The translations under genes were made by a program, and so were the position numbers. The notes below the pieces were generated by a model. That model was not told the origin of the DNA, did no database searches, and was given only the letters and a program-made list of their open reading frames with translations. A DNA stretch of 63,957 bases, counting the filler, from Vezdaea acicularis (taxonomy: Eukaryota), in NCBI GenBank assembly GCA_026025075.1. It is 3 parts of 3 records of this genome, joined end to end, with 100 filler letters (N's around TTAATTAATTAA, not from the genome) between each part and the next. Parts side by side here need not be neighbours in the genome. Positions count along the whole stretch, not along the records: positions 26,892 to 53,506 come from JAPEUI010000177.1; 2 more parts are not named here. One strand, 5' to 3'. Each line of letters opens with the position of its first letter. The stretch's first letter is position 1. Positions 24,722 to 53,606 of the stretch are shown in pieces.

Positions 24722-26250
24722 GATATAAGAATGAGAAGGACGCGAATGCAGACGTAATTTGAACCACATCGGTCCCAACAAGGGATTGTCCAAAAAGCGG
24801 TGAACTTGGGATCCTCGCCTCAGGGCTTGCGGGAACGATGGGTGTATTTCTATGTCGCAACTCCCAGAACGATCACCGGAAATTCACAGATATTGGCTGA
24901 GATGGATGGAACCCTCGGAACAAGGTAGAGTTTTAGCTTCAGTCTAGATTATAAGCCCTATCCGAAGGAGTCGATAAAAATGCAAATACCAAAAAGGACT
25001 GACGCTGCAAGACAAGAAAGGGGAAGTACGCCACATCGTGGCACCTCCTTATATAACGTGAGAGCTGGCCATGGCAGGGCAAGACAAAGTATGCCTGATC
25101 CAACGGATTGACCGCATTAACCCTCACGAGCTAGAACGGAGGCAAAAACTAGCTGTGAGTAATAAATGACTGTGCAGAACTTCATGCTGGAAACGAGCAT
25201 GGGCAGCAAAAAGGAGTGCTCTTGAAACGCGGAGCACCATGAACTGAAATCGAGGAATAGACTCGAAAGGCGGCAATGTCCGCGTGGCGGATGGAAGTTC
25301 ATAGAGCATGAACGAGGCAGAGTAGCGGTCTGAAGTGGCTCTAGAAGGGACGGAAATGGTTTGATGTTCATCTATAGCGCTGTCGTCCGTTGCTTCCATT
25401 TGGAAGCTTGGGAGATTGACGTTATGTCCAGGGACTTGACGGGGCCGACAACTCGGGCGCTCGGGGTTTTAGCTTGCGTTAGTCCGGAGGCAACGGCTTG
25501 CGTGTAAGCCAGTACGGGTGTATTCGGCTGTCCACTCGAACTACGAGCATTAGCCTTCGATTTTATGGGATTGCGTTGGAGCCTGTGGCAAGCACGTCGA
25601 AAGAGTGGACGTCATCCAAGGGCAGTGTCGATATCGATGCTGGAGGCAAAGCCAACCGATTAAGCGTCGTTCGGACCTTAAAATTCGCTTGCGGCACGAT
25701 GACACACCGACCTCGGGCCAATCTAAACCCTTACCTAAGCTAACGCACGTATTTGAAGGACCGACAGTCGGAAAAACATCATCAAATGTCCGACGGCCGA
25801 CATTTCTCGGAATTGTTTAGAATGGCGGAGCCCCCCTGACCGGGAGAAGGAGAGGCGTAATGCTCACTACGCTCACGATACTTCTCACGAGCTGAACGCA
25901 GATCTACTCCTAGACTCTTCTATCTCTGTCTGATCATGACGGAGGACCTTATCAGGAGTTCTCTCAGCTATTTCCCATGCGTCGGGCCAACCGGACATAG
26001 GTGGCGTAGTGCCGATATGACCACCAGTCTAGGTCTAGACCTCTCTTGCTCAGAACCCCTGATGACTAAAACCTTCCCTGAGAGGTTCGTGGAAGTACGG
26101 GTACACGTACACGTAACAGGCCGCCAGCCAAGGATTATCACGTGCTGATAAGATAAAGAATCTCGCCAAACGTCATCGATCTTTCACGGTAGAAAGCGCC
26201 ATGCCTTTGTATACCTAATACACTTCGTTTTGCTGATCCATTCATTTCTT

Positions 26251-26791: not shown

Positions 26792-26891
26792 NNNNNNNNN
26801 NNNNNNNNNNNNNNNNNNNNNNNNNNNNNNNNNNNTTAATTAATTAANNNNNNNNNNNNNNNNNNNNNNNNNNNNNNNNNNNNNNNNNNNN
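26792..26891. other. Artificial contig linker / assembly gap
   Basis: N-run + TTAATTAATTAA (stop codons in all six frames) + N-run, 100 nt in total. Confidence 0.97.
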
Positions 26892-27280: not shown

Positions 27281-27677
27281 CTATTCTTCAAGCTCCTCAT
27301 CGTAGTCTTGCAAGATTGACTCTACCACCTGCTTCAAAGTTGGCACGAAGTCAAAAGACTTCTCCCAAACTATGACATTCCCAGTGCCCACAACCTTGGC
27401 TTTGACTGCCGGAAGTTTAGTAGAGCACAACATCGCTTCCATCGACCACCGAGGAATTTTGGACAATTTCGGTGAAGCAATCTGAAGTTTCCAGGCGCCT
27501 TCTTCGGTCAGTCCCAGCCCTTCCTCCTCCTCGTCAAATCGACCACGGTCGCTCAAGTACTTGATCCACTCGACGACGCCACCGGCCTTGGAAGACTTCA
27601 GGGCAGACATCGTTGCCCTCTTCTAAGGATAGTTCAGCTTTGGAAATTGAGATTTGGGCTTTACTTACGTTAGGCAT
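27281..27677 (-). CDS. Small orphan protein (~116 aa, 2 exons)
   Basis: ATGCCTAAC|GTAAGT...CTGAAC...TAG|AAGAGGGCAACGATG splices in frame onto ORF 27281-27610. Confidence 0.55.
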
Positions 27678-27921: not shown

Positions 27922-30805
27922 CTATATGACTTGTGGTGAATCGAGCTCTTCTACCGCAGCCAAAGCTTCCTCGAATTGGCTATCATCGTCGGATTGTTCT
28001 TGCTCCATGTACGCCGAACCAGCTTCAACCGTCATTGATTTATCGCTATGAAGCTGTCGTATAACTTCAAACGCTTGTTCAGCAAGCCCTGGAATCTTCA
28101 GTCATTCTGTAAGTTACGTGTGAGAATGACATACTTCGCAGCGTTATCAGGGGTCTTCCGTAAAAACTATCCCCTTTCTTTGTGATCGGGCCTTTGGACA
28201 TCTCTAAGAGGTCCATGATCAGATCTAGAGCTCTTGATCGAAAGCTGGGCTGGCTGAGACGAGGCAAGATTGACAAAAGCTCCGACAGTTGAGATTCGGT
28301 CCAGTCTAAGGTACGTTGTATCTCATTCTTCAGGTATTGCAGTTCTTCCGTCGCACGGTCTTGCCGGTACAGTGCTTCAACACTACTTATCATTTTCGCA
28401 GAGTATTTCCAGGTTGTTGCTTTCCCTACAGAGCTCGCTCGGCAGCTTTCAAACTCCCAGAGTGGTAGGTTACAACTTTTCTCGAGATTATCTAAATCGA
28501 AAGTATCCTTGTCTATTAGCTGTGGACGACAATATTCGGGTAGGCTGACACAGAGCTTGTTGAATTCGTCGACCTTCACTTCGATCCGTGGTAGTCGTCG
28601 CTTCAGCGACTGCACAAGTTTTTGTGCGCCTTTATGCCCAGTAATTCGACTGCGAATCGATTTCAACTCCACTGCGCGAGCTGATATCTGCTGATGAATG
28701 GTTGATTTGAGCTTTTCTAGACGATTCCAAGTATCGAAAGAGCTGTAGGTGGCCCACAACTGTCCTTCGATCGCCCAGTCCGCTCGACACTGGTTGTTCT
28801 GCCCCAATGCCTCGTCGGTTGCGGATACAGCTTGCGCGTATTGACTCTCCAAGTTTTCAATAGTAGGCATCCAACAATCTGTAGATTCAGCTCGCCGGAG
28901 AGTGAACCGGTCGAAGCTTTTTCGTAGTTCTATTTCGAGCTCTCTTTCCCGTCTGATGCATTGATAAACATCGTTGAAAGGGCGTTGATCAAGATAATCA
29001 TCAAAGCAAGCCTCAGTTGCCATAAACCAGCTCCGTTGAGCCTGTGCTTCCCTGCTCAATTCCGTTAACACAGCCTCGCGAGTTACCTGTTCACTTTGCT
29101 CCTTTATTGACAAAACCAAGTCTTCAATCACCCTTGAGCTCTCCTGTAACTCTTGATGGCATTTGTCAAAGCGCTTTTGCAGATTAGAGAAAAGTTTAAC
29201 TCGAAGACGGCGGGCTTGGTAGAGACCGTGCTGATCAAGCAGAATGATCCTCGACTTTGCACTTGACTGCCGGCCAACCGATACCAAATGTGCCATTGAT
29301 GCCCAATCGCGCTCGCAGCCTTCCCCGTCCGATCTTCCAAGCCCTTTGACCCTCAGTGGCCCCCACAAAAGCTGACAGCGAAGCTCATGGGAATAGTTGT
29401 GAAAAGCGTTCAAGCTAAGCTGGACACGCTTATGTAACACTGGGTCAGCAAATTGCAAAGATCGTTCAAACTTACATGCAATGTCGTATTGAACATGAAT
29501 TGCAGCGTTAGTAGGGCACATGTCCACAACAGACTTAATGAGAGAAACCGTTGAGGAGCTTCTCTCGCCTGCAAAAAGGTTGAGATACCGTAACGGAATA
29601 CTATGTCGACAGACCGCTCCCATGACACCGGTTTCGTCAAGATTTGCCATCGATTTTGGCTTGCGTTCTGCAGAGGCTGTAGCAAACGTGTGGTTACAGC
29701 CACCTAAATTCTTGCGGGGCTGACTATCCACTTCATCCTCCGTAGAGCTCTCCGTTATGAACAGTTCCGGAGTATAGTTTGACTCGCGGCTAGTGCTGAT
29801 CCATTTTCGCCGTGAATGCTGAAAGTTACCGTCAACAGAAAATACGCAGGGCAAGTCATCGTCATAGCTTCGATAGAAACAGGCTGGACAGAGACTTGCC
29901 AGAGTGTTCTGTTTGAATACGGCTCCGCTCATTCGTTCCAACTCTTCAGTACAATCTAATTGACATATACGATCCAACTCGAGCCAGTTGAAATAAGCAT
30001 ACTCCCATGGTTTTTTGAATTCTGGAAGACTTTGACGTGTCAATTTCTGTAAGAAGTCATGAAGACCGTGAGCCCAGGCGTACTTGGAGATACTGCCAAT
30101 CATTATGATGTTATGGAAAAAGCGAATCAAATCCATGGAAAAGGCTATATTCGGCTTTAAGGGCGCTATACATCATCAACTTCTACACTAACAATGTTGG
30201 ATATGGGTGAATCACTTGATGGAAAATAATTTCTTTCGATCAGAGAAGTAGCCGCGGCATCACAATCGCACCATTTCAAAACTGTTTTATTAGCTCCTAC
30301 ATGACATTAGCATTGTCATCAGGCTTGAACTAGGATTTTAAGCCTCACCTGTAAGGCTTACAAGCCACACAGTGTGGGAGCCAGCTTCACAGCTCCTAGC
30401 CAGACATGCAGCTTTCTTGCCTGTTTTCATAGCCTGCAAAAAGGGCGCTTGCACCTTTTCCCAGTTGGCGTCCCTGCGTCTTCTATTCTCTTCGTTGCTG
30501 CGCAGTAGAGGAAATAACAATGGCAAAGTCTCTCCGCTCTCAGAAGATTCAATAGCTCCAGCATTTAAATCAGACGTTGATAGATCTAGATCCTCCGACA
30601 GCTCGTTATCTGCCAAACGGGATCCGTCACCATTCTCAAAATCCATTAGGGAATCACGGTGGAGGGCTTTTGATTTACGAGCGTGGAGTTGTCTTGTGAT
30701 AAGCGGTTGAAGATCTTCCCAGATAGCTCTTCTTGTTTGTTGATTCCATCTCAGAGGCTTTTTGAGACCTGTAACGTAGAACGGAGTTCCTTTTCGTCGT
30801 CCCAT
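27922..30805 (-). CDS. CxC1-KDZ (Kyakuja-type) transposase, multi-exon
   Basis: Spliced CxC1-like WCDC...NYFPSTPLKPNIAFS; CPAC; SVDGNFQHSR; LDETGVMGAVCRH; GER; YDIACKF; FHNYSH...CQ; GLGRSDGEGCERDWA. These are the diagnostic KDZ RNase H-fold motifs, followed by a helical C-terminus. Confidence 0.9.
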
Positions 30806-31533
30806 CACAGGCAATGTTGCAGAGTATTTCAATTGTGCTATGGAAGAATGATCCGCACGACCCGCACACGAAGAAGATGGCCAGTAGGATTTGAGATTGA
30901 TGAGTTCTTGATGTTGCTGTGGAGGTATGAGTATGCTTGACTAGTTGACATTCAAACCTGATCAATACTAAACTGAAATAGTAGCATTCTAAGGCACTTT
31001 TCCATTTTCTAGGGTGAGTATCGTAAGAAGAACATAGATGAAAGCGTACTTGCCCCGGGAAGAACTTTTAATCTATCTTGTCCAGAATCTGGGTGCAGTA
31101 TTTAGGCATATATCAACAGAATGACAGAATGCGTATCTGTAGATAGATTGTGTCTATAGTCATGGATCAATTTCCTTGTCTTGATTGTAGCTATTGTACT
31201 GCGGGCGTCATCAGAAGGCCGCAATGTGGCGGCATATATTTTAGGTTATGGGAATGTCAATTTAATTAACTTGATGAAAGCGCTTGAAGCGCCACTAGAT
31301 TAGCGGCTAGCCGAGGGATTGACAATGGAGCGCATCTTTACAGTTTCATCGTTAGTCAACAGCGTCTTTGATTTTCCCTTTCTTAAACACTTCTCTCCCT
31401 ATGATACTGGACCTTGCTTCACCTATTCAAAGGTGAATACTTAAACTTGCTTCTCCCATGAGAAGTCACTGCTTAAGCCACCCAAACTTTTACAGCCTCC
31501 TCACTGACTAACTTTCAATTCTCCTCTCTCAAA

Positions 31534-33207
31534 ATGGGCTTCAAACCTGAAAACCCGTATCGCGTCGGCCGAACACTCCATCTTGGAACTGATACCAGTG
31601 AGAATTGGTTTCTCAAGGTGACCATCGAGAAAGTTTGGCCAATAACTCAGGCTGTCGTCATGCTAGTAGGGGTTGATGAAACATCCAACATTTCTGAACG
31701 TCTTCCAAAGCGAGCAATTTTAAAGATGTATGATCGGCGGTATACCAACAATATACGTAATGACCGAAAGTTTGATGAGTACAACCTGTTATCAGAGCGT
31801 CACTATCAGTCTCTAGTCACGGAAGGCTGGCCGTCTGCATGTCATGATAGCTATGTGGACCAACTCCTCACAAAGTTGGAATCAGAAGTCTCTGAAGGCG
31901 AGGACGATGATCAGGATGAAGATGATCAAGATTTTGATGAAGAGGAAAATCAGGTTTTTCAAAGAGTTCGTGCATGGAGCCAAGAATCATTACTTCAACA
32001 AGATATCTTGGACGTTTGGGCCACAGAGCATGCCACGTATGAACGCCTTGTGTCAATGCAAGGTAACGAAATACCAACCCTTTATGCTGCTAAGCTATTC
32101 GATGCTCCCGACAAACCATCTGATCTTCCTTTCCTGCCATGTGGTGGACTTTTGCTGGAGTACATTGACGGACAAAGCCTGGAGGATGCTGCACAACATA
32201 TGCCCCCTTCAACATTCAACAAGATTTATCAATCGATCCTGTCGACAATTCACAAGATGGTCAGGCTTGGGGTTGTAAATCATGACACTGCTGCGAGGGA
32301 TTGGCTATTGCGTAAAAGCGTTGAGTTGGGGTATCAGCCAGTACAAGTTGATTTTGGCCTTACTCAGATACAAGAGCATGAAAGCCTCCAGGAATGGCTT
32401 GCTTTTGCTGCTGGAAGGTCTCAAGAAGACCGTATTGTATTCACGATAAAGAAGCTTCCTGCTTGTCAACAATTGCGTCCCAAACATAACTATTATCGAT
32501 TCTATCAGGTATGAATATTTGCTTGATTTATACAACGCTTTCTTAGGTTTCTTGAGATTTCTAACTTCTAGAAATAGGATCAGCCAGCTTCTATGGACGA
32601 TTCCATGTTTGATGTAGGTTTGATGGTATCTTTGGACAATAGCAAAACAAACTCATCGCCTGTCGTTCACGCACAAGCATCTTCTATCGAGTCTCTATCC
32701 AGCCAAGATCGATCCGCTTCAAGCTATGCAGGCATGCAAACACCACCTGACTCACTATACAAATATGATCAAAAGAAGACAAGGCCAAGATCTCGATCCT
32801 CACCGACTTCAGTTGCCTCAGGAGAACTTGATTTCCATAAGCATGCCGAAGGCCCTATGCTGTTCTTGTCAGCCGAAAAACAAGAGGACATACAGCATAG
32901 GATTCGCGTCTGGCGACAGGAGGATATCACCATCCAACTTGATGAAAACCTTGGAGGTGAAAATGACCGTGCACATCTAATAGATTTAGAGGACGAACCA
33001 CCCCTCTTAGCTTTGTCACATCCGCGTCGTCGTAGACGTTCTGTGGCTAGCTGTAACATAGCGGGTAATCGTACCATTGATAGTACAAAAGAGATGGCAC
33101 TCACTCCTAGACCATATGACTCAACAAGTCACCATGACAAGGCAATGCCTAGAGCGTCCGATAGCTCTCAAAGCCCAAAAGCCAACACTGAGGAATATCA
33201 GCCTTGA
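31534..33207 (+). CDS. Atypical protein-kinase-like protein with Ser-rich tail (intron 32509-32577)
   Basis: AILKMYDRR, E..TYERL..MQG..IP.LY, GLLLEYIDG, VVNHDTAARDWLL, VDFG. GT at 32509 and AG at 32576-77 join in frame to ORF 32593-33207. Confidence 0.75.
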
Positions 33208-33997: not shown

Positions 33998-34682
33998 TGC
34001 GCTTGAAGCGCAATAAGCGGAAGCGAATAAGAGCTGGCTCCGAGCGCTCCAAGCGCATGTAATCTAGGCAAATCCTCCGTTTTTGCGTGTAGTTAGGCTT
34101 TACGCGCTTGACACGCATGGAGCCAGCCCTATGTTCGCATGGACACCTTGCGCCTCATGCGCATGCAATCTAGTCCGAGGCGGAGACGAAGGGTTTGCCA
34201 AAGCTTCATGCACTTGAAGTGCGTAAAGCCAGAATGCTTACTTCTGCGCTCTATGCGCTTCAAGCGCATGGTGTTCTTATTATCTCCAAAGCATCTTGCG
34301 CTTGAGGCGCATGGAGCCAATTTCCGTCCACTTGAGCTCCTTGCGCTTCAAGCGCAAGATGCTGCCAAGATGATAGGGGCTTCGTGCGCTTGAAGCGCAA
34401 GACGCCCCAGAAAGGCCAGTGGCGAACGATTCGTCCGGGCTCCTTGCGCTTGAAGCGCAAGAAGCTTGGTCGCGACCGAAGCAAGAACCGACGCTCGGGC
34501 GCCATGCGCTTCAAGCGCAAGATGCTGCCAAGATGATAGGGGCTTCATGCGCTTGAAGCGCAAAAAGCCCCCGAGAGGCTAGAGGCGAATGGTTTGCCTG
34601 GGCTTCTTGCGCTTGAAGCGCTGGAAGCCCAGTCGCGACCGGAGAGGAAGCCGACGCTCGGGCGCCACGCGCTTCAAGCGCA
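33998..34682. repeat. Array of 14 palindromic TGCGCTT(G/C)AAGCGCA repeats with 43-46 or 60 bp periodicity
   Basis: Copies start at 33998, 34043, 34103, 34149, 34209, 34254, 34297, 34342, 34385, 34445, 34505, 34548, 34608 and 34668. A 163-bp higher-order unit is duplicated at 34342-34504 / 34505-34667. Confidence 0.92.
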
Positions 34683-34717: not shown

Positions 34718-34772
34718 GCCCCTTCACGAATAGGCGGATGAAGCCGCTTCGTCCGCCTATTCGTGAAGGGGC
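34718..34772. repeat. 55-nt near-perfect palindrome/hairpin
   Basis: GCCCCTTCACGAATAGGCGGATGAAGC-C-GCTTCGTCCGCCTATTCGTGAAGGGGC: 27-bp arms with one mismatch. Confidence 0.95.
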
Positions 34773-35692
34773 TCGCTTAGCAGCAACCGCATGCCAAGGG
34801 TGCAGAAATACGCGAAACCACGTGGATCATTATCAAAGGTTCTCGCATCTAAGAACTGATTGGTGAGCGCTGAAGCTGTACTAGCCCTTTACCCAGTATT
34901 TCTGCTATTTGTGAATGATGCTCTGAGAAGTATGTTGGCTGAGAACCGCATAACCAAAAGGGTTATGATTCTATCGTTCTCTCTACTCCTACCGACGCCC
35001 CTCACACCACAGGCATCATGTCGCTAAACCCGTCAAAGAACAAGGAGCTGAGTCGATAAAGCCACATCCACCCAAATACGACCAGAATAGTATCGGAATT
35101 AGTGCTAATAAATACCTGAAAGGCATTTTGAGATTTCATTCTAGGTTACGCGTGAAAAGGCGCTTCGTTGTTTCCTCCACAACGTAACCCGTAACCCCGA
35201 TGCACGCCTCCTCCATGAACCCGATCTCGCTTATCGGCCCACCCCTGTAAGTCAGGAACGTCATTGTATCGACCGGGTTCTCCCTCCGAAGATCGCGTTG
35301 AACGAGTTATGTCACATTGCAATCACATCACATCGCAGCACCGCATGCGTTTCAACCAAGACACGTATTTCGTCATGATGTAGGTCATTGTCTGCCCAAA
35401 TGCGGAAATATAGGGTGTTTGCTAGTGTCTGGTACTCTCGTCATGACTCTGAAAGGATGAAGATCAGGACGACTCAGGGTAAGGCCTCCCAAGTAGGTCA
35501 AGACGGTGATGTAAGGAAAGCATTGAGGGAGGTAGATACGTAGCTTCTGACGTGACGCTTTGTGAAGCGAATATATAAATCGAGTGAGATATGTTTTACC
35601 TCTCATCTCTCTTGATATACTTGAAAATCATCTCAATCCAAACCCGCTCAAAGATACAATTAATCTACTATATCTATAAGCTTCCCGCAAAA

Positions 35693-43413: not shown

Positions 43414-43555
43414 ACAGGTGCTCTGGAGAGGTGTAGAGATTGAGGTAGAAGCAAACACATTATTGGATGGCGTAACGGACACCCCCTATCTATCCGGCCT
43501 AGGAGGGATGTGGGGTGACTGCGGGTAGTGTTTAGAGGGCGACGATCGCGCCTAG

Positions 43556-43792
43556 TGCACGGGGTGTTAGCTATGCCTGTTCCGCAAAGAAGTGGCGTCC
43601 GATTTTCGTGATTCATCAGCACCACGACTACAGACGCGATCGGAATTTAAAAGCTTATAGAGGCATCTCAAGGTGGAATAAGGTTTCTGTTGCCACTGAT
43701 AAAATTGTTTAAAGCGAAAGGGTGGACGGTGGAAAATTGGGAAAATCGGACGCCACTTATTGGCAGAACAGACATAGCTAATACCCCGTGCA
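43556..43792. mobile_element. MITE-like element, 237 bp, with 52-bp terminal inverted repeats
   Basis: 43556-43607 TGCACGGGGTGTTAGCTATGCCTGTTCCGCAAAGAAGTGGCGTCCGATTTTC versus the reverse complement of 43741-43792: 47/52 identical. Non-coding interior. Confidence 0.8.
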
Positions 43793-43807
43793 TAGGTCAC
43801 GTTCGTA

Positions 43808-46375
43808 TTACAAATCCCTGATCGCCCCATCGAAAGCGTCGATAATCCGGTCGTACATCTTGACAGTATCGCTTGCTGGTGGTGTTCCCCAAAAGATTGA
43901 TCCGTCTGAAGTGATGGGAAACAGGATGCTGCGAAGTCTTTCCGCCAGAGGCTTGAGCTTCTTGAAGGACGTGGAGAACTCGGCCACCAGTTTTCTGAAA
44001 TAACCCTTCTCCATGTGCGCACGTTTCATAGATGCAATATTGTCATAGGTGCCACTGTACCAGCTACGTAAGAAGTTTTTTGGCATCCTCCAGTGGACGT
44101 ATTCGCTTGGTACTCGAGACGCACTTTCGAGGCTGCTCGAGTCCTCAACATCTTCGACTGTACCCTTGTGGCGAACGCATATCCATAAGAAGACGTAGAA
44201 GAAAGACTCAAGATCGTGTCGGAATGTGTGACTGAGACCTTCGAGCACTTCAATGGCCATGAACTGCAATGTGCCGGTTTGACTTCCAGCTCCTCTGCAA
44301 GATGATCCTCGCTCCTTCGCTAGATCTAGGTCGATTAGGATGCCTGTTGGCGTCTCACCCCTTGCAATGACGATATTGTTCATGGAAATGTCTCGATGAA
44401 GTATTTTCCCATCGATCAAAAGTGACTTGTGAGCCAGGATGGCATCACGTAATACTTGAAGAAATTCTTTGATGGAATGGAATTCACCAAACGGTCTTCC
44501 AGCGGGGGAGACTATCAGGCAACAGTAGGCTCGATCTTCATAAGGCTCGTCCTCATCGCTCATAAGACTATCCGGGTGAGAATCTTGAGCGTTGGAGTAA
44601 AGGATCGTTTCGGGCTCGAGCGGCTCTGGTTTGGGTGTCTCATCACTTAAACGTCTTCTCTTAGTGCTGCTGCTCTCCCGCTGGACTACATCCCTTTTTC
44701 TCTTTCGACTTGAATTTGTAGCCACGCTAATGAGGCTAAATTCCAATCCTCTTGGAAGGCTTGCGCTCTTCTTCAGCTTTCCTCTTAAGCTCCCTTTCTC
44801 CCCCGTTTGTGAAGGACTTCTCTCGCCCACGGGACCGTTTAGCCAAGCACTTTCTCTTGAGTTCTGACGTGGCCTTTGAAACGACAAGCCACTCCGCAAG
44901 TTTGCGATAGTGTCGTGGCATTCGCCTGTAACGATATCTTGATGGTCGACCCATCTCGCGATCCCCTTAACGCCTCTGTCTTTTGCCAATCTCAGTAGTT
45001 CTCCTTCCCGTCGTCGTTTTGCTGATGGCCAAGAGAATTTGACGACGTACTCCCATTCTATTGCGCGCTCTCCCTTACCTCGATAACAGGTCGTGCCACG
45101 ACATACGATGCCGTTTTTAGAAGCAATGGGCGTGTCCTCGAGATAGATCTTTGATCTGTGAGACATAATATGGCTACCAATGTTATCACGCTTGATAAAG
45201 GTATTCAGTCCGAGCTCTTCATCCGACATGAGGGCATAGCCGGCAAGAACTCTCACAAAGTGTTTTGGATACCCGTGGATATCAAAATTTGGCGAGCTGT
45301 ATGTCCCAGACCTGTCGAACAAATAGAGTCTCATCCTACTTCCACACAAAGTGTACCCATGCGTAAATCTCCTACTTGGCTGGGCTCCAAAAACTTCCCG
45401 GGCGTATCCTGCCAGTTGCAGTAAAGTGTCCTGTTGGCCATCGTCGTCTGGATTGGACTTTACTACACCGATAACAAGCACGCAAGACCAGTCGCGTTTC
45501 CCAGAAGACATAACAGCATCTGAAGGGGCGAGGAAGTGATCCAGCTTTTGATTTCGTTCGGAGCCAAGTAGTCCGTGCCAGTTTGACGTGAAATAGGATC
45601 GATCCAATCCTGCCAGAAACTTATCTTGAAAGGTCTGCAGCCAGTCTAAAAGTTTGCTTTTAGTCGCAGATACTGGGAATTCCATCCATCTGTCTTTCTC
45701 GCACCACTCCTTGGACCTTTCATACTTCTCATTGGCCGCATCCGTCCAGGCCTTCCCCTGGAAGTATCGATCGAAAAACCCCTTCACGTCGTTGTACGTA
45801 CAGTTTCGCAGCTCCTCGGTGATCTGTTGATTAATCTCGCTGCGCTTTTGCTCTAGACTTCTCCGCAACGATGAAGACCTACAGGGCGTATCGAGGACCC
45901 ATTTTTCTACAGCGGTGGGAGGAGTGGCGTTCCTTATGGAAGTGGTGAGGTCAAACACGGCAGCCCAGATATTGACGTCGCTCTGTCCGGTGAGGACTGC
46001 CTTTAGGAGCGGGCGAACAAGCTTTGTACCTGCTTCACTAGAAGAGAGGTGAGGAAGGAGCATAACATCGCGAGAGAGCAGCCCATCTGATATCCTTGAA
46101 CGAAGTGATCGAACGGCGGGTTGACTTAGCAGGGCCTCACAGAGATCCAATATTGCATTTTTCGTATCTATTCAAGATTAGCAGCGTATTGATCTTACTG
46201 AACGCCAATGACCTTTGTTTGGCCATCGAGACGTGAGCTTGTCTACTATCTCGGGGGTGTCGACACCCTTGCCCTTCTCGTGCTTGGACGTGAATGCGGT
46301 GCAGAAGTCTAGAAGCCCGTCTTTCAGAGGGTGTTCACTGATTATCGCGAGCTCCTTTGATGAAAGCTGAGCCAT
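43808..46375 (-). CDS. Fungal-type protein kinase (FunK1/Pkinase_fungal), 2 exons
   Basis: W..VLVIG..K, QLAGYAREVF..QP.RRF.HG, LFDRSG, ELGLNTFI, IVCRGTTCY, VVKFSW, LHRDISMNN, LIDLDLA, TGTLQFMAIE, HTFRHDLESFFYV. Confidence 0.93.
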
Positions 46376-53506: not shown

Positions 53507-53606
53507 NNNNNNNNNNNNNNNNNNNNNNNNNNNNNNNNNNNNNNNNNNNNTTAATTAATTAANNNNNNNNNNNNNNNNNNNNNNNNNNNNNNNNNNNNNN
53601 NNNNNN
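53507..53606. other. Artificial contig linker / assembly gap
   Basis: N-run + TTAATTAATTAA + N-run. Confidence 0.97.

Follow-up and report, generated by a model that had tools for sequence, protein, structure and literature searches.

Introduction

KDZ elements are mobile in fungi, and in Cryptococcus their insertions cause antifungal resistance; one of them, KDZ1, escapes RNAi, and its control has been called unexplained (PMC11343200, 10.1101/2025.05.19.654958). The closest anatomy to the locus described here, a transposon that we call E1 and that lies partly in the window (the whole 63,957-nucleotide stretch of DNA that was analysed, filler included), is that of KDZ1-3 of Cryptococcus neoformans, which belong to the Dileera clade. 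According to the accessible parts of the same two reports (PMC11343200, 10.1101/2025.05.19.654958), KDZ1-3 share with E1 a KDZ transposase with CxC1, an 8-bp target-site duplication (TSD), giant size and extra genes without assigned function, with TIRs of 139-241 bp compared to about 300 bp in E1. They are, however, 9-11 kb long and reside in a basidiomycete, whereas E1 measures 25.2 kb and has an ascomycete host, and neither subterminal palindrome arrays nor internal copies nor a kinase are mentioned in those parts of the reports.

The Dileera / Zisupton elements of rust fungi and mushrooms likewise combine an 8-bp TSD with cargo genes; in the accessible part of their description two rows give consensus lengths of 13-17 kb and termini starting with GACC.., compared to CACCC..GGCATGCGG in E1 (Kojima 2025, PMC12730594). 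Those families were chosen for TET/JBP dioxygenases, for which the E1 ORFs of 100 codons or more gave no Pfam match, and no KDZ element appears among the ascomycete TET+ families that the accessible part lists (PMC12730594). The same source describes Kyakuja elements as having 7-bp TSDs and no TIRs (PMC12730594), and because of its TSD length and TIRs E1 is not one of them. E1 belongs to the KDZ superfamily and, with its 8-bp TSD and TIRs, is of the Dileera / Zisupton type.

The regulatory principle considered here is not new, because self-regulation via end motifs is known in other superfamilies. In the Drosophila P element, the transposase site overlaps the promoter. Like E1, the P element makes an 8-bp TSD, and the part of its description available to us gives it internal 10-bp transposase sites near the ends (one transposase site per end) and an element-encoded repressor (PMC7776569). 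In En/Spm, TnpA acts on clustered short end motifs and is an element-encoded regulator of element genes, which would be a likeness to E1 if our preferred reading holds; En/Spm is, however, of another superfamily, and TnpA acts at the termini and needs dense clusters, with little or no binding seen, in the portion of the report available, to regions that carry no more than about 2 motifs per kb, whereas E1 has single copies at internal promoters (10.64898/2026.08.24.746577). The VANC proteins of VANDAL elements provide a second parallel, as their short, family-specific motif lies in intron, intergenic and terminal non-coding DNA and is often tandem, as in E1; according to the accessible text, VANDALs differ in being MuDR-type plant elements with 8-9-bp non-palindromic motifs, and demethylation was shown for them (PMC5735166). 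No VANC homology was seen here. If the preferred reading holds, E1 would work like Spm TnpA or VANC while being a member of neither group.

A literature search with most subscription journals outside its coverage found no binding site or cis-regulatory anatomy of any KDZ element and no KDZ in lichens or Ascomycota; it also found nothing on Zisupton with subterminal repeats. With a candidate site of 13 bp, three proteins that might bind it, and both non-autonomous copies and an intact autonomous one, this transposon family makes KDZ recognition and regulation directly testable.

Transposon E1 and its relative E2

The window carries the right end of E1, an intact KDZ transposon of 25,188 bp with the 8-bp TSD CAGAAATA (34803..34810, plus strand). 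Its terminus at 34787..34802 (minus strand), where the TIR starts, reads 5'-CACCCTTGGCATGCGG inwards; an identical terminus lies at C281:80101 with the same 8-mer to its left, and the two ends agree at 283 of their first 300 bases. The first 127 bp of the window's contig (26892..27018, plus strand) recur at 100% identity at the end of C281, and there the element runs on for 17.4 kb. It is this overlap that gives the full length and implies that the two sides of the N gap at 26792-26891 do not truly adjoin; this gap and a second one at 53507-53606 carry the linker TTAATTAATTAA. A contig from public run X2 runs from the left flank on C281 straight into 34803 with a single 8-mer, and this empty site, along with the TSD-paired ends, identifies E1 as a discrete mobile unit. 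Allowing one mismatch, the terminal pattern is matched at 25 ends: 18 of them are paired by 8-bp duplications, some enclosing non-autonomous elements of 1.4-1.7 kb, and seven are unpaired.

Within the TIR lies a 55-bp near-perfect hairpin (34718..34772; fold z -9.9) with related hairpins in all end subfamilies. Further from the terminus is the right subterminal array of nine perfect and two one-mismatch palindromes (33999..34681), spaced mostly 43-60 bp apart. The initial annotation had taken this array for part of an element end, correctly so: the end belongs to a real transposon, and the array is the subterminal region of that end. In full-size as well as non-autonomous members of the family, arrays of this palindrome lie inside both ends.

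The transposase gene of E1 (27928..30805, minus strand, introns predicted) encodes an N-terminal cysteine cluster and an open main exon of 697 codons. Its KDZ label stands, with a match to the transposase domain PF18758 at E 6e-40 and intact DGNF, YDIAC and GEGCER motifs; residues D102, D218, E272 and E275 are kept across 10 relatives. The window exon taken alone gives no Pfam match for the N-terminal CxC region; in the E2-type protein P0014, which is 60% identical to the window gene over 901 columns, CxC1 is found at E 1e-12. The start codon at 30805 is where homology to the E2 protein begins. Downstream lies the small gene B (27284..27622, minus strand; function unassigned), with a second copy at C281:85689-86027 and a homologue at C147:5805-6011. 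The near-identical database proteins P0014 and P0035 carry the NCBI label of the ascomycete Vezdaea acicularis, and the runs that contain window sequence are mostly moss metagenomes.

A PF18758 profile search of the genome returned two transposase genes, that of E1 and one on C147 that is 67% identical to it. The latter belongs to E2, which consists of C147 and C226 (127-bp overlap); its left part, including the left end, was sought and not found. Between convergent genes, E2 has an internal 146-bp tandem array bearing the palindrome (C226:2222-2741, locus L067). Also inside E2, duplicated fragments on C147 (L059:3990-5040) resemble a ribosomal protein P0 gene, a possible host gene capture. 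A third large element, which is decayed, has upstream of its gene E a non-autonomous element (L064:4645-6040, C269:100644) whose core is AT-rich and whose second terminus is not recognisable.

The palindrome between the transposase and kinase genes

The exact 13-mer GCGCTTGAAGCGC, with the dyad GCGCTT-n-AAGCGC, occupies 31280-31292 in the divergent spacer between the KDZ start (30805, minus strand) and the start of a kinase-like ORF (31534, plus strand), as originally annotated; the spacer (30806..31533) is 728 bp long with a GC content of 41.5%, and the distance from the site to the ATG is 475 bp on the KDZ side and 242 bp on the kinase side. The claimed distance of 2.7 kb to the array is also correct, the first array copy starting at 33999. 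The description of the site as a solo copy is true of the window, where no further copy with 0-1 mismatch is found outside the array (two-mismatch matches occur at 25218 and 33761), but not of the element, which continues on C281 with four more internal copies. With up to two mismatches the window holds 31 matches on both strands, compared to 1.6 expected. Public runs X1 and X2 span the site and are free of differences over 983 and 666 bp, respectively, which says nothing about conservation.

In the 18.95-Mb genome the exact 13-mer occurs 84 times, compared to once for the reversed control; central-A/T forms add 15 more. Among the resulting 99 perfect copies of GCGCTTnAAGCGC, 96 are in DNA of this transposon family and three outside (C68, C250, C288), one of the three within a 605-codon frame, so that the count proposed in the initial annotation finds the 13-mer rare outside the family; the chance of a perfect copy in a 728-bp spacer is about 1e-4. 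Within one mismatch there are 250 copies versus 55 for the reversed control; of the 250, 165 fall within 63.8 kb of element DNA and 85 in non-element DNA. The motif is thus enriched in terminal and non-coding element DNA and rare in the host.

This enrichment extends to the element interiors, for which expected counts were taken from the rate in the non-element genome. With its end arrays removed, E1 (22,587 bp) has three perfect copies and five within one mismatch (expected 0.004 and 0.10; P about 1e-8 and about 1e-7); E2, with the 146-bp tandem array left out (17,670 bp), has no perfect copies and two within one mismatch (expected 0.003 and 0.08; P 0.003). A host control of 175,808 bp, leaving out three loci that had been picked for having the motif, contained no perfect copy and one within one mismatch.

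The 31280 site is a bare core: a flank profile test found its flanks not array-like (P=0.44 against host DNA), and, unlike a pair on C79 that represents a decayed element end, it has no TIR or hairpin relic beside it. An old element-end relic at 31293-31533 was considered and rejected, as an HMM of 20 distinct ends gave 2.6 bits (E 16), its best signal being a small hairpin at 31406-31433 that folds at z -2.6. An array origin via CTAGCCGAGGG, a word that by eye is common to the 31280 flank and one E2 array unit, was dropped as well, since the flank profile test did not support it.

Internal copies before element genes

In E1, a pair of copies lies between the divergent genes A and B' (C281:84225 and 84281), one copy lies between the divergent genes C and D (C281:94770), one upstream of ORF E in what is an intron in the P0035 model (C281:95929), and one at 31280 between KDZ and kinase. 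All five are upstream of element genes. In E2, one copy is found between the C and D homologues (C226:817, with a two-mismatch copy at 623) and a one-mismatch copy between gene B and KDZ (C147:6283). Each of these seven internal sites falls outside stop-free frames of more than 110 codons, and six of the seven lie between divergent genes.

Comparison of the two transposase-bearing elements, both from one genome, shows an upstream copy at the KDZ gene in 2/2 despite a different neighbour, and a copy in the C/D spacer in 2/2. The KDZ-upstream spacers of E1 and E2 have the palindrome as their only BLAST match (14 bp, E 0.009); a common word of that length was found in 4/376 random host pairs. Conservation in homologous elements, which had been put forward as a check, is seen in part: a one-mismatch copy is present upstream of the E2 transposase, but its distance to the start differs, being about 1,020 bp if counted to the homologous ATG and about 610 bp if counted to an annotated upstream ATG. 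Retention is also incomplete at other genes, as gene A has a site in one of two copies (upstream of gene A in E2 there is no counterpart of the E1 pair), and the HMG-like gene of E1 has no palindrome site.

The initial annotation had gone further, in tying the array to both the transposase and the kinase and proposing an operator through which the end-binding protein autoregulates the two. The tie to the transposase is upheld by the copy kept in E2; that to the kinase is not. The kinase-like gene (31534..33207, plus strand; ORF segments 31534-32511 and 32578-33207) keeps its label in part: it scores 0.99 in the ESM Atlas to fungal kinase clusters and has visible K, HD and DFG motifs, but it has no Pfam match and no PDB sequence support. 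Homologues occur on C90 and C226/C147. The E2 copy (L067:3997-4893), which has an internal TGA and lies 7 kb from the KDZ gene, has no site within two mismatches in 3.2 kb upstream; the C90 copy (L071:4605-5552), which is open, has no element end or motif within 10 kb around. With a site at one of three copies, a kinase-specific operator was rejected and autoregulation of the kinase is unsupported; the gene probably came to lie there through rearrangement and was not co-selected as a target. Nor is the 31280 site a private operator of the KDZ/kinase pair, as it is joined by internal copies at other element genes. Another fungal kinase, of FunK1 type (PF17667), lies at window positions 43808-46171, 9 kb outside E1, beside a 66-bp inverted repeat at 43542-43806.

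The palindrome thus stands at the ends of E1 and comes back, as single copies or pairs, in the non-coding stretches before several of its genes, the transposase gene among them, and this suggests self-control via an end-binding protein. We hold, with moderate confidence and from sequence comparison, that 31280 is a maintained putative site for an element-encoded protein that binds both the end arrays and element promoters. One such protein, probably a dimer in view of the dyad symmetry, would occupy the end arrays and the internal copies: at the ends it could aid assembly of the transposition complex or protect against silencing, and through the internal copies the expression of the transposase and accessory genes would become linked to how much of it is present. 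A lone palindrome may be too weak for this, given that Spm TnpA binds sparse-motif regions little or not at all.

Candidate binding proteins

Three candidate binders are encoded by the family. The first is the KDZ protein itself, with its CxC1, and the second an HMG-box-like protein common to E1 and E2, which has a weak Pfam match (E 0.008). The third is the unannotated C/E accessory family, whose predicted structure resembles a winged helix-turn-helix. This family has 28 relatives at E<=0.001, with no Pfam family above cut-off in the 25 relatives scanned and no usable ESM Atlas match for gene C. The model (pLDDT 80) has three helices and a beta hairpin, a topology that fits a winged helix-turn-helix. 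It matches winged-helix and homeodomain proteins weakly, PadR, FoxA1 and E2F8 among them (Z 4.7-6.0, rmsd 3.4-4.9, 78-94 aligned); the best match (Z 6.0, rmsd 3.8, 78 aligned) is below the tool's trustworthy level, and Foldseek found nothing at E<=0.001 (best E 0.2).

A KDZ relative in another genome, L117, helps to separate the two kinds of end signal. It has the terminal core CACCCCAGGCATGCGGT at 262, with the KDZ gene starting about 320 bp inside, and also a C/E gene and an HMG-like gene; no palindrome within two mismatches occurs in its 12,997 bp. This implies that the TIR core is older and that the palindrome is lineage-specific. The conserved TIR core would then be the likelier cleavage signal, and the palindrome may belong to an accessory protein. 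One metagenome scan gave 4 loci from 74 candidates, none with the palindrome within two mismatches. Other repeats were noted in these relatives: L117:11150-11703 has 17 copies of a 29-bp repeat, 4 kb from the HMG-like gene, containing CCATTGTT, which resembles an HMG-box consensus, and L119:1855-2260 and L120:1-475 have tandem repeats of about 150 bp with TCAACGCTTTGAGCA directly upstream of a distant KDZ gene start. TCAACGCTTTGAGCA is four mismatches from the palindrome motif and was not counted as support.

Tentatively, and with a good deal more doubt than for the site itself, one may envisage a regulon of giant ascomycete KDZ transposons, in which the winged-helix-like C/E protein would bind the palindrome at the ends and at the transposase and accessory promoters, in parallel to VANC and TnpA and of separate origin, with a motif that turns over between lineages and insertions aimed 22-25 bp from CACGTG boxes.

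Alternative explanations

The internal copies may instead be non-functional debris, short pieces of array that template switching or post-excision gap repair copied inside or that rearrangements of the element left behind. The elements are clearly rearranged, as gene order differs between E1 and E2; E2 has its internal tandem array of the motif between convergent genes; and purging of insertions into ORFs would explain the non-coding positions anyway. Moreover, of eight internal sites that were tested, two are flanked by array-like sequence, namely C281:84281 (P 0.001) and C147:6283 (P 0.012), and for the latter, the E2 copy upstream of the transposase, the mismatch and flanks also fit copying from an array. 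The 31280 site itself, on the other hand, has a perfect core within unrelated flanks and no TIR relic, and a copy has been kept in two homologous spacers otherwise diverged beyond alignment, so that we regard debris as an unlikely explanation, though one to be taken seriously.

We judge it improbable that the motif is recognised by a transcription or chromatin factor of the host and that the element gathered sites at its ends and promoters for expression or protection. The absence of the motif from L117, a relative with the same core genes, is what one would expect if the motif followed the host, but element-encoded VANC proteins also show rapid motif turnover between families, according to the accessible part of that study (PMC5735166). 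Likewise, non-element copies within one mismatch exceed the reversed control (85 versus 55), but this excess can stem from CpG content and unrecognised element relics, and three perfect copies in 18.9 Mb of host DNA, one of them in the 605-codon frame, are unlike a host regulon.

Alternatively, the internal sites could serve transposition and not transcription, by looping or compacting the 25-kb element so that its ends pair, in keeping with its unusual length and with the spread of the E1 sites at about 4.1, 14.7, 15.8 and 21.7 kb from the left end. The sites nevertheless stay with particular gene starts despite the change in gene order between E1 and E2, which fits promoters better than spacing and makes this a decidedly improbable account. 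Chance occurrence of the 13-mer, which the three perfect host copies with unrelated flanks like those of 31280 might suggest, is for the most part refuted by the enrichment, with P about 1e-4 in the spacer and about 1e-8 when the three perfect internal copies of E1 are taken together, and has next to no probability left.

Insertion sites

The sequences around the termini drew attention for a separate reason. CACGTG occurs in eight of 25 distinct 40-bp end flanks, six of them at 22-25 bp from the terminus, compared to 8 of 2,386 host 40-mers, and an example lies beside E1 at window positions 34819-34824. An insertion target preference next to E-boxes is thus possible; the literature search, with most subscription journals outside its coverage, found no description of a CACGTG insertion preference. 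Several other insertions lie in one dispersed repeat (C1, C244, C269, C294).
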